From a virus (taxonomy: Duplodnaviria; Caudoviricetes): DNA of 64,000 bases. The notes beneath the pieces are model-generated. The model was not told the origin of the DNA and made no database searches. It saw nothing but the letters and a program-made list of their open reading frames with translations. Location of the stretch: IMG/VR virus record IMGVR_UViG_3300009664_000002, positions 7,333 through 71,332 of that record. One strand, 5' to 3'. Positions 16,439-32,374 of the stretch are shown here, piece after piece. The first letter of the stretch is position 1; each line of letters begins with the position of its first letter. A program made the translations under genes and the position numbers.

Positions 16439-16446
16439 TATATTTG
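16439..16446 (+). promoter_or_regulatory. Bacteroidota-type -7 box TAnnTTTG upstream of leader 1
   Basis: TATATTTG here; the same box occurs at 18413, 19709, 21709, 25792, 30801, 32458 and 43155. Confidence 0.6.
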
Positions 16447-16459
16447 TAAAAAATTTTTT

Positions 16460-16525
16460 ATGATATTAAATGTAAATATACAACAACCCAATTCAAATCA
16501 ACATCCAAATATATTTAGATGGTGA
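16460..16525 (+). CDS. Attenuator leader peptide 1 (MILNVNIQQPNSNQHPNIFRW)
   Basis: 21-codon ORF rich in Gln/Pro/His codons; antiterminator overlaps its stop; precedes Pro/His/Gln tRNAs. Confidence 0.8.
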   Translation: MILNVNIQQPNSNQHPNIFRW

Positions 16526-16561
16526 GGTTTGTTGTATTATTTATATTTGAAAAAATAAATT

Positions 16562-16591
16562 AAACCCCACCAAAAAAAGTGGGGTTTTTTT
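16562..16591 (+). terminator. Attenuator terminator 1
   Basis: aaaccccac/gtggggttt hairpin with U-tract; 5' arm is complementary (10/11) to tggtgaggttt at 16520-16530. Confidence 0.85.
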
Positions 16592-16616
16592 GTAACATTT
16601 TATTTAGAATAACGTA
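16591..16616 (+). promoter_or_regulatory. ECF-sigma-like promoter TGTAAC-N16-CGTA downstream of terminator 1
   Basis: One of at least 15 copies with 16-17 nt spacing. Confidence 0.65.
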
Positions 16617-16628
16617 AAAATAAAAAAT

Positions 16629-16705
16629 AGGGTAGTTGGGGAGTCAGGTCACCCCGCCACATTTGGGATGTGGAGAACTCGTGAGTTCGAATCTCACCTA
16701 CCCTA
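16629..16705 (+). tRNA. tRNA-Pro(TGG)
   Basis: Acceptor agggtag/ctaccct, anticodon arm ccaca-tttggga-tgtgg, T-loop ttcgaat. Confidence 0.9.
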
Positions 16706-16707
16706 CT

Positions 16708-16780
16708 GTGTTAGTGGACTATTGGCTGTCCGTTCAGATTGTGGCTCTGAGTGATGGGGGTTCGATTCCCCTCTAACACC
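16708..16780 (+). tRNA. tRNA-His(GTG), no encoded G-1
   Basis: gtgttag/ctaacac acceptor, C73, tcaga-ttgtggc-tctga; base -1 is T. Confidence 0.93.
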
Positions 16781-16785
16781 AAAAT

Positions 16786-16856
16786 TGCTCTATGGTGTAA
16801 TGGTAACACGTCAGAATTTGACTCTGAAGATTTAGGTTCGATTCCTTATAGAGCAA
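16786..16856 (+). tRNA. tRNA-Gln(TTG)
   Basis: tgctcta/tagagca, tcaga-atttgac-tctga. Confidence 0.92.
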
Positions 16857-16860
16857 CAAA

Positions 16861-16975
16861 ATTATAATCTAAATGAATTCGGGTGAAAAGTAGTAAGTTG
16901 GTTAAATTCCAAGTTCAATTAAAATTATGAGAAATCTAGTAAGGTGGTTCGAATCCATTATATTTGGATTATAAT
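16861..16975 (+). ncRNA. tRNA-like RNA with 15-bp terminal stem and T-arm
   Basis: 16861-16875 pairs with 16961-16975; T-arm ggtgg-ttcgaat-ccatt; central ttgg-ttaaatt-ccaa hairpin. Confidence 0.5.
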
Positions 16976-16981
16976 TTTTAA

Positions 16982-17056
16982 CTAGGTGTTCCGCAGATGG
17001 CTATACGGACATGCATTGGAAGCATGTTTTCGGGAGTTCGAATCTCTCCACCTAGA
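16982..17056 (+). tRNA. tRNA-Pro(TGG), second copy
   Basis: ctaggtg/cacctag (C1:G72, A73), catgc-attggaa-gcatg. Confidence 0.88.
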
Positions 17057-17070
17057 CTAATTTTTTTATT

Positions 17071-17442
17071 ATGAAGTATAATTTATATTTAGATGATTTT
17101 AGAAATCCAAGTGATTCTGCATATTATTTAAAAAATAATATCTATTTGAAATTGGAATGGGTTGTAGTTAGAAATTATAATGAATTTGTAAAATGTATTG
17201 AAAAAAATGGAATTCCTGAAATTATTTCATTTGACCATGATTTAGCAGATATTCATTATGATTATCAAACAGATTTATTTTCAGAAAAAACTGGTTATGA
17301 TTGTGCTAAATGGTTTATTGATTATATTATTGATAATAATTTACAATTACCAAAAAAAATATTAATCCATTCAATGAATCTAGTTGGAAGTAAAAATATT
17401 AAATCTTTATTTGATAGTTATATTAAATCATTAGAAAATTAA
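17071..17442 (+). CDS. Cyclic-phosphate-processing receiver domain protein (RNA repair associated)
   Basis: LYLDDFRNP, WVVVRNYNEF, ISFDHDL, KTGYDCAKW and IHSMN motifs. Confidence 0.78.
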   Translation: MKYNLYLDDFRNPSDSAYYLKNNIYLKLEWVVVRNYNEFVKCIEKNGIPEIISFDHDLADIHYDYQTDLFSEKTGYDCAKWFIDYIIDNNLQLPKKILIHSMNLVGSKNIKSLFDSYIKSLEN

Positions 17443-17476
17443 TAAACTATTTATATTAAAATTTTTAATTGCTATA

Positions 17477-18382
17477 ATGAATTGTTTTAATATAATTACA
17501 GAAGAAATTATTGATTTTTTTGTTAATGAAACATATAATTCAATAAATGAATTAAAAAAATTATCAAATGATATTGTTTTAAAAATAGCAAAAAATAATA
17601 TTGATAATTTTAAAAATATAAAAAAACCATTTAAAATAGAAGGAATTTTATTAAGTGAAATTAATCCTTCAAACTATGTTGAATTATATAATTTTATTAC
17701 AAAATTTGAATTATTCATACAAATAAAACCAACCGATAAATCAAAAAAAGATAAAGGTGCTTATTTTAGAATAGTTCCGTCAAATAAAAATGCATTGAAA
17801 AAGATTGAAATTTATGTTAATGAAAATGATATTCAAGAAATATTTAATGAATTGAATAATACTACAAAAGAAATTAATCATAAAGATTTATATTTTCATC
17901 TATTTCATCTTATATATAAAACATTATTACATGAATTACAACATGCATTTGATGATTTTAGAAGTGATACTAAAATATTTCAAACAAAAAAAACAATTAA
18001 ATATCACGATGATATTGATAAAATAAAAGATAATGTAAAAAATATAATAACAAAAGATTCTATTTTATTCAGTAGATATTTAAACCTTCAACATGAAGTT
18101 TGGGCTAGATTCATTCAAGCAATAAATGATATTGAATTTGTTGACCTTATAATAGATGATGAATTGAGAGATATATTAGTAAAATTAAAACCATTAGAAA
18201 TTGTTGTAAAAAAATTCATTTCAAACTATTATGGATTTAGACCATTAAATAATAAAATAAAAAAGAAATTAATTAATAAAGTTGTACAATTTTGGCATTA
18301 TGAAAAAGAAAAATTCAATAATAATGAATATGTTTCTTATGATGAATATAAACGTCAAAATAAATTAGAAAAAATATTTTAG
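17477..18382 (+). CDS. HExxH zincin-like protein with N-terminal IITEEI motif
   Basis: LLHELQHAFDD plus downstream HEVWAR. Confidence 0.6.
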   Translation: MNCFNIITEEIIDFFVNETYNSINELKKLSNDIVLKIAKNNIDNFKNIKKPFKIEGILLSEINPSNYVELYNFITKFELFIQIKPTDKSKKDKGAYFRIVPSNKNALKKIEIYVNENDIQEIFNELNNTTKEINHKDLYFHLFHLIYKTLLHELQHAFDDFRSDTKIFQTKKTIKYHDDIDKIKDNVKNIITKDSILFSRYLNLQHEVWARFIQAINDIEFVDLIIDDELRDILVKLKPLEIVVKKFISNYYGFRPLNNKIKKKLINKVVQFWHYEKEKFNNNEYVSYDEYKRQNKLEKIF

Positions 18383-18400
18383 TTTTTTTTTTGTAGTTTA

Positions 18401-18427
18401 TGTAACATTTTATATCTTTGTATCGTA
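18401..18427 (+). promoter_or_regulatory. Overlapping ECF-like (TGTAAC-N17-CGTA) and TAnnTTTG promoters for leader 2
   Basis: tgtaacattttatatctttgtatcgta; near-identical to 30789-30815. Confidence 0.7.
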
Positions 18428-18455
18428 TTTATTGAAAATATAACAAATAATTATC

Positions 18456-31138: not shown

Positions 31139-31144
31139 CAAATT

Positions 31145-31222
31145 CGGCAGATAACCAGCATGTCTGATACACATGACTAAGGTAATTGGTTGAAAATATG
31201 GGTTCAAATCCCATTCTGCCGA
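31145..31222 (+). tRNA. tRNA-Ile(GAT), non-canonical (D-arm relocated)
   Basis: cggcaga/tctgccg, catgt-ctgatac-acatg, T-arm; 7-nt 5' linker and 22-nt post-anticodon segment containing aattggtt. Confidence 0.78.
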
Positions 31223-31228
31223 CATTTT

Positions 31229-31313
31229 GGAAGATAGCGTCCAATGGTGGGCAAGCGGACTTGAAATCCGTGCCATCGGTTAAACGATGAGGGTTCGATT
31301 CCTTTATCTTCCT
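31229..31313 (+). tRNA. tRNA-Ser(TGA)
   Basis: ggaagat/atcttcc, gcgga-cttgaaa-tccgt, long variable arm. Confidence 0.9.
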
Positions 31314-31323
31314 CTAAATACTA

Positions 31324-31411
31324 GGTGAAATGGGTGAGTGGTTGAAACCAGCAACCTGCTAAGTTGCCGTACATATTCAATGTACCGAGAGTTCGAATCT
31401 CTCTTTCACCG
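31324..31411 (+). tRNA. tRNA-Ser(GCT)
   Basis: ggtgaaa/tttcacc, G73, gcaac-ctgctaa-gttgc. Confidence 0.93.
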
Positions 31412-31664
31412 CAAATATCTTAAACTGCAATTTAAGATATTTCTCACACAATACTACTATAAACAATTAAATTGTTGCAGCAATTTATTGATGTTGAGTG
31501 TGTGAATCTCTGCTTTGCATAAGATGCTACATTTTAATATTCAGTGTATTTTAATGTATTTCATATGTTTAATAACTTATTAAATAACATTATTTTCGGA
31601 GATATTATAGTGTTTGAAATAACACAAAATGAATGAGTATGAGGCTCATAGCAGAGATTATTTT

Positions 31665-31735
31665 GGAACGATAACACAATGGTAGTGTGCTTGGCTGAAG
31701 ACCAAGAAATACAGGTTCAATTCCTGTTCGTTCCA
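31665..31735 (+). tRNA. tRNA-Phe(GAA)
   Basis: ggaacga/tcgttcc, cttgg-ctgaaga-ccaag. Confidence 0.92.
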
Positions 31736-31740
31736 CAATT

Positions 31741-31813
31741 GCAGGTGTAGCATAATGGATAATGCATCTGTCTTCTAAACAGATTATTGGTGGTTCGAAT
31801 CCACCCACCTGTT
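31741..31813 (+). tRNA. tRNA-Arg(TCT)
   Basis: gcaggtg/cacctgt, tctgt-cttctaa-acaga, A20. Confidence 0.9.
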
Positions 31814-31880
31814 CTAAAATAAAGTAATTTTTTTGTAAGAAATGTTAATAATAATCATATTAAAAATAATTCAAATAATT

Positions 31881-31953
31881 GCAGGTGTAGCATAATGGTT
31901 AGTGCATCTGCCTTCCAAGCAGAACTTTGGTGGTTCGAATCCACTCACCTGCT
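31881..31953 (+). tRNA. tRNA-Gly(TCC)
   Basis: gcaggtg/cacctgc, U73, tctgc-cttccaa-gcaga. Confidence 0.93.
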
Positions 31954-31961
31954 CAAATTAA

Positions 31962-32036
31962 TGACCCGTAGCGTAAATTGGTTAACGCAGTTCACTCATA
32001 ATGAAAAGACTAAGGGTTCAAGTCCCTTCGGGTCAA
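31962..32036 (+). tRNA. tRNA with CAT anticodon (Met, or Ile2 if lysidine-modified)
   Basis: tgacccg/cgggtca, ttca-ctcataa-tgaa. Confidence 0.88.
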
Positions 32037-32042
32037 CTAAAT

Positions 32043-32115
32043 GCACAGATGGCTGAATGGTTTAAGCACTTGACTGTTAATCAAGGTGATATAGGTTCGA
32101 ATCCTATTCTGTGCG
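32043..32115 (+). tRNA. tRNA-Asn(GTT)
   Basis: gcacaga/tctgtgc, G73, cttga-ctgttaa-tcaag. Confidence 0.93.
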
Positions 32116-32127
32116 CTAATTAATAAT

Positions 32128-32200
32128 GCCAGATTAACTCAATTGGTAGAGTGCCATACTTGTAATATGGAAGTTAAGAGTTCGAATCTCTTATCTGGCT
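32128..32200 (+). tRNA. tRNA-Thr(TGT)
   Basis: gccagat/atctggc, ccata-cttgtaa-tatgg. Confidence 0.93.
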
Positions 32201-32222
32201 CAAAATTTCATATTAAATAGAA

Positions 32223-32295
32223 ACACCTGTAGCATAATGGATAATGCACCTAACTACGGATTAGGTCAATGGGGGTTCGATTCCCTTCAGGTGTT
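32223..32295 (+). tRNA. tRNA-Arg(ACG)
   Basis: acacctg/caggtgt, cctaa-ctacgga-ttagg. Confidence 0.92.
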
Positions 32296-32301
32296 CAATT
32301 T

Positions 32302-32374
32302 GCAGGTATCGTATAAAGGCTTATTATGTCGGCTTGCCATGCCGAAGATGACAGTTCGAATCTGTCTATCTGCT
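32302..32374 (+). tRNA. tRNA-Gly(GCC)
   Basis: gcaggta/tatctgc, tcggc-ttgccat-gccga. Confidence 0.92.

Follow-up and report, generated by a model that had tools for sequence, protein, structure and literature searches.

The 71,332-bp virus record IMGVR_UViG_3300009664_000002 of IMG/VR (Duplodnaviria; Caudoviricetes), a phage fragment from wastewater, encodes a T4-type portal and terminase. In this study, we analyzed its positions 7,333 to 71,332, a stretch of 64,000 nucleotides (nt) with a G+C content of 21%, which is called the window below and whose numbering is used throughout. ARAGORN and Rfam identified 22 tRNA genes and one transfer-messenger RNA (tmRNA) gene, all on the + strand and in four groups. 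Each group stands behind a promoter, a short open reading frame (ORF), and an intrinsic terminator. These four units were designated U1 to U4, and this report concerns their probable role as leader-peptide attenuators of tRNA genes. All results were obtained by computation on sequence.

The four units share a common layout: a -33 TTTG element, 19 nt, a -7 TAnnTTTG box, an ORF starting with ATG, a terminator, and the tRNA genes. The leader ORFs of U1, U2, U3, and U4 have 21, 32, 25, and 37 codons, respectively, and all lie behind -33/-7 promoters. The primary-sigma promoter of Bacteroidota consists of TTTG and TAnnTTTG about 19-20 nt apart, and both elements were found at a spacing of 19 nt in all four units. 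The promoters thus appear to be of the Bacteroidota type, which is consistent with a Bacteroidota host. The terminator hairpins are of the AACCC(C/G)...GGGTT type followed by a T run, and the distance from the hairpin stem to the first tRNA is 7 to 43 nt in the window. No -33/-7 promoter fits into the gap between terminator and first tRNA in any window unit. Nine strong terminators were found on the + strand of the whole 71-kb contig. Four of them, those of U1 to U4, are of the AACCC..GGGTT type and directly precede a tRNA array, and the other five lie at gene ends. The attenuator terminators are therefore a distinct class within the contig.

In U1, the promoter (16416..16446) has its -33 TTTG at 16416-16419 and, after 19 nt, the -7 box TATATTTG at 16439-16446. 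The leader ORF (16460..16525) has a core rich in Gln, Pro, and His, and the terminator (16563..16591) consists of a hairpin at 16563-16586 and a T run to 16591. The U1 array (16629..17057) contains Pro, His, and Gln tRNAs, a tRNA-like element (~16860-16980), and a second Pro tRNA. The U2 promoter (18390..18420; TTTG, 19 nt, TATCTTTG, -7 box at 18413-18420) is followed by a leader (18456..18554) that is rich in Leu, Asp, Glu, and Val and has one Ala and one Trp, and by a terminator at 18576..18606 (hairpin 18576-18605). The U2 array (18637..20627) contains Asp, Glu, Val, Leu(UAG), and Ala(UGC), an ORF, Trp and the tmRNA, another ORF, and Leu(UAA).

The U3 promoter lies at 25769..25799 (TTTG, 19 nt, TACATTTG, -7 box at 25792-25799). 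Since the ATG of the U3 leader (25807..25884; four Lys and three Tyr codons) is only 7 nt past the -7 box, the U3 mRNA would be nearly leaderless. The U3 terminator (25912..25947; hairpin 25912-25944) abuts the tRNA-Lys gene at 25948, and the array (25948..26120) consists of tRNA-Lys(UUU) and a Tyr(GUA) tRNA-like gene without a D arm. The U4 promoter (30778..30808; TTTG, 19 nt, TATCTTTG, -7 box at 30801-30808) is identical to that of U2 over a 19-nt core. The U4 leader (30857..30970) consists almost entirely of Thr, Ile, Asn, Ser, Phe, Arg, Cys, Gly, and Met codons, and its terminator lies at 30998..31029 (hairpin 30998-31025). The U4 array (31057..32375) contains Cys, an Ile(GAU)-like gene, two Ser tRNAs, a 250-nt gap, Phe, Arg(UCU), Gly(UCC), Met, Asn, Thr, Arg(ACG), and Gly(GCC). 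No tRNA, ORF, or Rfam match was found in this gap (31415-31664).

Standard ARAGORN and Rfam calls cover only 17 amino acids: Pro, His, and Gln in U1; Asp, Glu, Val, Leu, and Trp in U2; Lys in U3; and Cys, Ser, Phe, Arg, Gly, Met, Asn, and Thr in U4. The Ala(UGC) gene at 18980-19050 was called by ARAGORN at a relaxed threshold only. The Tyr(GUA)-like gene (~26022-26120) and the Ile(GAU)-like gene (~31140-31228) were called by neither program. Both have an acceptor stem, an anticodon arm, and a T arm, lack a 5' D arm, and carry a long extra hairpin between the anticodon and T arms. Related phages have ordinary Ile and Tyr genes at the corresponding places, in the orders Cys-Ile-Ser and Lys-Tyr. 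An initial annotation of this DNA had stated that the four sets do not overlap and together make up all 20 amino acids. This holds for the sets as listed here, with the qualification that Ala, Ile, and Tyr depend on non-standard calls. In U2, Trp, the tmRNA, and Leu(UAA) lie 0.5-1.9 kb past the compact array with two ORFs intervening. No + strand terminator was found between the compact array and these distal genes, and they are probably transcribed together with it.

Several further features of these regions were recorded. The tmRNA in the distal U2 array (19743-20097) scored 73 bits with Rfam. Relatives keep the tmRNA together with Leu, Leu, and Met tRNAs as a conserved block, upstream of which neither a leader nor a terminator was detected. 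The tRNA-like element in U1 (16860-16980) has a long terminal stem and the T-loop motif GGTTCGAATCC but no clear anticodon, and some relatives also show an unassigned ARAGORN call inside the Pro/His/Gln array. A GTATTTA word is conserved beside the leader promoters, for example at 18422-18429 and 30810-30818 in the window. It lies between the -33 and -7 elements in the Pro/His/Gln and Lys/Tyr classes and just past the -7 box in the other two.

We examined whether the composition of each leader matches its own tRNA set. Amino-acid frequencies were taken from the long ORFs of the contig itself, and 200,000 simulations were run. In the U1 leader, 6/20 residues belong to the set Gln/Pro/His, against an expected fraction of 0.07 (p=1.6e-3). 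The corresponding values were 21/31 residues for U2 (expected 0.30; p=1.4e-5), 7/24 for U3 (expected 0.15; p=0.06), and 30/36 for U4 (expected 0.48; p=1.4e-5). The joint excess of 32 residues (z = 7.3) was matched in 0/200,000 simulations, and the actual pairing of leaders with arrays ranked best among the 24 permutations. Every member of each set was present in its own leader, which occurred in 32/200,000 simulations. The enrichment claimed in the initial annotation is thus borne out jointly, with U3 marginal when taken alone. Within the window, the codon boxes sampled for Leu, Ser, Arg, and Gly were close to those predicted from codon usage and are informative only across units.

We also investigated the pairing between the 3' part of each leader and the 5' arm of its terminator. 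The antiterminator 5' strand of U1 (16520..16530) spans the last codon and the stop and pairs with 16561-16572, a segment containing the terminator 5' arm. The strands in the other units are TGTCGGG in U2 (18539..18545), the weak GGGAATT in U3 (25869..25875), and a 10-nt segment in U4 (30954..30963). In the window, these strands span positions -14 to +7 relative to the stop codon. The duplex energies for U1 to U4 were -13.5, -12.9, -8.4, and -14.2 kcal/mol. Such energies were reached by 0.3%, 0.6%, 8%, and <0.04% (0/3000) of random windows of the same DNA, respectively, and the Fisher-combined p for the four units was ~1e-6. When the segment covered by a ribosome at the stop codon was masked, only the terminator was predicted, in all four units. 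When the ribosome was placed upstream and the transcript ended at the terminator loop, the antiterminator was predicted, again in all four. The exchange of structures that the earlier annotation had foreseen, together with the rest of its layout (promoter box, 21-37 codon leader, tail complementary to the terminator arm, terminator, tRNAs), was therefore recovered in every unit. In free U2 RNA, codons 5-7 can pair with the antiterminator strand, in the manner of the trp 1:2 helix.

Related loci were collected from IMG/VR with the ribonucleotide reductase (RNR) that is encoded between U3 and U4. This search gave 80 loci, some on contigs of up to 676 kb. For 14 records, the DNA upstream of the RNR locus was fetched to look for the upstream arrays. 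No relatives were obtained when the search was made with the 301-amino-acid (aa) protein encoded between U1 and U2. Many of the 80 loci have a Lys/Tyr cluster ~2 kb before the RNR gene and a big array of Thr, Cys, Asn, Ile, Ser, Phe, Gly, and Arg tRNAs after it. The Pro/His/Gln and Asp/Glu/Val/Leu/Ala/Trp arrays were found in most of the 14 records. The order in relatives is Pro/His/Gln, Asp/Glu/Val/Leu/Ala/Trp, Lys/Tyr, RNR, and the big array, and the same order was found in four genomes of 322-357 kb that are rated 100% complete by IMG/VR. A leader ORF and a terminator stand at the head of each array in these relatives.

The leaders form four conserved families with cores of the types QPQPQQHPQ, DIL..VLLW..ED, TYYYGKKSYKK, and STSSRNG..IFCS.F.GRN. 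The window leaders are divergent members of these families, and the TYYYGKKSYKK-type core is kept in 21 relatives of the U3 leader. We compared 63 curated units, most of them taken from related contigs in IMG/VR that reach 357 kb; because members of a class are homologous, counts over the 63 units are not independent events. A -33/-7 promoter precedes 56/63 of the homologous leaders. In each class, the amino-acid profile of the leaders reflects the tRNAs of the arrays, a match reached by 0/20,000 shuffled sets. The permutation of tRNA sets suggested in the initial annotation thus never reproduced the observed match, either in the window or over the 63 units. The reading frame of the leader is conserved in the 63 units. 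In pairwise comparisons, third codon positions differ most in all four families, and the ratio of nonsynonymous to synonymous changes (pN/pS) was 0.44-0.70. This variation is consistent with selection on the amino acid, and hence on the tRNA, that each codon calls for.

Pairing was conserved in these units as well. In 57/63 units, the leader tail was complementary to its own terminator 5' arm at a level reached by at most 5% of random windows of the same locus, and within each class a tail paired better with its own arm than in cross pairs. In 13 homologues of the Pro/His/Gln family, the antiterminator helix covaries with two compensatory pairs, as when a leader TGG is replaced by CGG and the 5' arm has G in place of A. 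The terminator of this family pairs in 97% of cells, with five pairs showing compensatory changes. The antiterminator of the Lys/Tyr family was 98% paired with two compensatory pairs, and a one-column slip gave at most 57%.

The composition of leaders also followed arrays that had been repartitioned. Two contigs of one lineage, L055 and L061, carry the big array as two separate arrays, each with its own leader. The leader of the Thr/Arg/Ile array is rich in Thr, Arg, and Ile. The leader of the Asn/Phe/Ile/Ser/Gly/Leu/Cys array has gained Leu codons, and Thr and Arg have almost disappeared from it (Fisher p between 1e-3 and 4e-3). Codon boxes behaved similarly. The U4 leader has both Arg boxes (CGA and AGA) and both Ser boxes, and all 13 big-array leaders contain CGN and AGR codons for Arg and UCN and AGY codons for Ser. 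Box codons in the leaders accompany box tRNAs in the arrays, although these counts are not phylogenetically independent. As the earlier annotation had anticipated, leader composition in homologous genomes varies with tRNA identity, also where a lineage partitions its arrays differently. One further locus, L101 (JBAZIW010000001.1; 362,763 bp, a single contig), is filed as a Candidatus Paceibacterota metagenome-assembled genome. It carries a Lys/Tyr leader, a terminator, and the Leu-Leu-Met ... Lys/Tyr order found in the phages, and is probably the genome of a huge phage that was binned as bacterial.

The same design was present in a cultured phage. Cellulophaga phage phi4:1 (NC_021788.1) belongs to another lineage than the window phage, has other partitions, and carries one long array of 23 tRNAs. 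The arrangement of promoter, short ORF, terminator, and array was found at two leaders, both with the common promoter and with a terminator just before the first tRNA. Most residues of the first leader are Gln, Arg, Leu, His, Glu, or Pro, and the tRNAs behind it are exactly those for these amino acids. The second leader has 23/26 residues in its own set (p=5e-4) and precedes Ala, Lys, Ile, Gly, Met, Asp, Thr, Val, Arg, Met, and Tyr tRNAs. In the phi4:1 annotation, the second leader is the hypothetical protein gp075, and the first is unannotated. We also considered gp076, which stands before Ser, Trp, and Phe tRNAs, as a third leader. It showed no clear composition match or terminator and was not counted. 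Because this phage is cultured, the proposed attenuation is accessible to laboratory experiments.

We consider it likely that the units act by ribosome-mediated attenuation and thereby exert feedback on tRNA supply. In this model, transcription would start at the Bacteroidota-type promoter and the leader would be translated at once. If decoding is fast, the ribosome would cover the last leader codons, the terminator would form, and transcription would stop before the first tRNA. If decoding is slow at a codon whose charged tRNA is scarce, the leader tail would remain bare and could pair with the newly made 5' arm. This pairing would block the terminator, and RNA polymerase would continue into the array. 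Since the leader codons are read by the tRNAs of the same array, each array would be under negative feedback from its own tRNA supply. The sequence itself shows how each unit is laid out, that composition matches the array, that alternative pairings exist and covary, and that the frame is conserved; we infer leader translation, the direction of the switch, and its natural trigger. The his/trp/ilv-type logic put forward in the initial annotation is accordingly backed by layout, alternative folds, covariation, and composition, which are all properties of the sequence.

Several observations weigh against this model. The full-length RNA prefers the terminator at equilibrium, which requires a kinetic switch like that of the classical attenuators. 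Many relatives have their antiterminator strand 25-33 nt upstream of the stop codon, where a ribosome at the stop would leave it uncovered, and the outcome there would have to depend on timing rather than simple masking. U3 was the weakest unit in both composition (p=0.06) and pairing (8%). The U1 leader contains five Asn codons, yet tRNA-Asn belongs to U4, and the Lys/Tyr leaders retain Gly, Ser, Thr, Ile, and Phe. The array of L093 has a tRNA-Gln and its leader has no Gln codon, and a few other arrays contain a stray tRNA with no counterpart codon in the leader. The homology of units within a class also limits the weight of counts across the 63 units.

The attenuators might instead depend on leader translation and report general translation capacity, such as ribosome availability, elongation rate, or the presence of inhibitors, so that any slowing would open all arrays. 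In support of this, a single leader samples several amino acids (as many as nine in U4), and the geometry would respond to any pause. The tmRNA within the U2 array is also a ribosome-rescue RNA. However, a sensor of this kind would not need codon matching, yet the composition follows the arrays in four classes, in repartitioned lineages, and in codon boxes, and the amino acids are divided into four non-overlapping sets. We therefore regard a general sensor as unlikely.

A reversed switch was considered quite improbable. Here, a stall near the 3' regulatory codons would cause termination, or a factor from the phage or the host would bind the leader RNA, and the leader would serve as a timer or brake. 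In Lys/Tyr and Pro/His/Gln relatives, the last regulatory codons are 2-5 codons before the antiterminator, and a ribosome stalled on them would mask the strand; the conserved GTATTTA word beside the promoters was also counted in favour of this reading. However, most regulatory codons are farther upstream, where a stall leaves the strand free. Fewer tRNAs during a shortage would have no evident use, and no RNA-binding regulator was indicated.

It is slightly less probable still that the terminators merely insulate, that the short ORFs are chance or untranslated, and that the tRNAs come from their own promoters or from processing of fixed-rate read-through: short ORFs and TAnnTTTG-like words are common at 21% G+C, the 12-nt word GTAACATTTTAT after the U1 terminator recurs in the U2 and U4 promoters, and the terminator is 100-320 nt from the first tRNA in some relatives, but the frames are conserved with changes mostly at third positions, the composition matches the arrays, the leader tail covaries with the terminator arm, each leader has a conserved promoter of its own, and the short gaps in the window leave no room for another.

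Under attenuation by tRNA supply, the trigger can be narrowed. Extra tRNA is no cure for amino-acid starvation, which suggests that tRNA molecules themselves are in short supply. The shortage could arise from a host tRNA pool poorly matched to the 21% G+C phage genome, from loss of host tRNAs during infection, or from defences that cleave tRNA. Genes near the units provide context. A cREC_REC domain protein (17071-17442; PF20274, 1e-22) follows right after U1, a T4 Rnl1-type RNA ligase (PF09511, 4e-19) is encoded at 23309-24409, and a Thg1-like tRNA-His guanylyltransferase (PF04446, 4e-25) at 46409-47239. Together with the tmRNA, this neighbourhood is consistent with a tRNA-care module. With these genes nearby, cleavage of tRNA by host defences may be the trigger, as had been proposed earlier. 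More tentatively, the four leaders could form a decoding monitor for 20 amino acids that re-issues only the missing tRNAs. Such a monitor would act with the ligase, cREC, and Thg1-like genes and would chiefly counter cleavage or depletion of tRNA by host defences or by phage-induced processes. This extension is possible, but we hold it with less than even confidence.

Leader-peptide attenuators are well known from enterobacterial amino-acid operons, where trpL, hisL, leuL, and pheL act in this way and ilvL of ilvGMEDA (Ile/Leu/Val) and thrL (Thr/Ile) are multivalent. The phage units resemble the ilvL and thrL kind in their promoter, codon-rich leader ORF, terminator, antiterminator that shares the 5' arm, and sensing of several amino acids. 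They have an ORF after a promoter, codon enrichment (marginal for U3 alone), a terminator, and a mutually exclusive antiterminator, with a less classical geometry in many relatives. Unlike the enterobacterial systems, they have tRNA genes as targets instead of biosynthesis or synthetase genes, which closes the loop on tRNA supply. They also differ in being carried by a phage behind Bacteroidota-type promoters, in covering as many as nine amino acids with a single leader, and in sharing out all 20 among four units. To our knowledge, all described leader-peptide attenuators control genes for amino-acid biosynthesis or synthetases. In the literature searched, which covered few subscription journals and leaves absence unproven, we found no published account of leader-peptide control of tRNA genes. 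Rfam leader models matched below their gathering cut-offs: Thr_leader RF00506 at 28.1/55 bits, Phe_leader RF01859 at 26.1/55 bits, and Trp_leader RF00513 at 19.9/41 bits. These matches reflect the terminator hairpins and were rejected as identifications.

Other known systems share parts of this design. The pheM leader of E. coli pheST controls a synthetase by attenuation and senses one amino acid. The phage units would likewise apply attenuation to a component of translation that is needed to decode the sensed codon, but their targets are tRNA genes. The E. coli tRNA-Phe genes were examined as a possible precedent and rejected, because K-12 pheV and pheU have spacers of ~105 nt with no leader ORF or attenuator. 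T-box leaders of Firmicutes bind uncharged tRNA directly and do not need translation. They are also terminator/antiterminator switches that read the state of a specific tRNA and have translation-related targets, whereas the sensor proposed here is the translating ribosome. The T-box model gave no match in the window at gathering level or up to E = 10. In T4, a tRNA cluster and the repair enzymes Rnl1 and Pnkp counter PrrC; T5 tRNAs counter a tRNA-cleaving defence; and vibriophages that degrade host tRNAs gain tRNAs of their own. The window phage resembles T4-type tRNA repair in having a tRNA complement beside a T4 Rnl1-type RNA ligase. We know of no description of gating by codon-matched leaders in the T4, T5, or vibriophage systems, and none was found in the literature searched.

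The units bear on why phages carry tRNA genes and on whether these genes are used constitutively. If attenuation is confirmed, tRNA output would be regulated by demand, family by family, with the ribosome as the sensor. It would extend trp/his/ilv attenuation to new targets and to homeostasis of tRNA supply. The leaders would also give a sequence read-out of the tRNA shortages that a phage expects, and they would offer ready-made, amino-acid-specific switches coupled to translation. If the monitor exists, large-genome phages would carry a sensing layer for translation autonomy, beyond spare parts.

The relationship of the window phage to sequenced phages and its occurrence were also examined. 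By DNA similarity, phages in GenBank gave only tRNA-level or single-gene matches. Among cultured phages, those of Bacteroides had the closest RNRs, with 37-40% identity, which likewise fits the Bacteroidota attribution of the initial annotation. The best match among them, Bacteroides phage DAC23, lacks a tRNA array near its RNR gene. A search of sequencing runs found DNA words of the phage in metagenomes from activated sludge, wastewater, and digesters. In six metatranscriptome runs, 26-41% of the sampled words were present, a figure for word presence alone.

Additional genes were observed around the units. The RNR large subunit gene (27091-30417) is interrupted by an intein (Intein_splicing, residues ~327-541). 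The RNR genes of many relatives have no intein insert, with matches of ~2.5 kb compared to 3.3 kb in the window. Just upstream of U3, at 24451-25751, five tandem small ORFs of 43-103 aa share a C-terminal motif resembling ..KKYTNIE... Further downstream, 38822-42115 encodes a protein of 1097 aa with six DUF285 repeats (3e-165) and a PKD domain.

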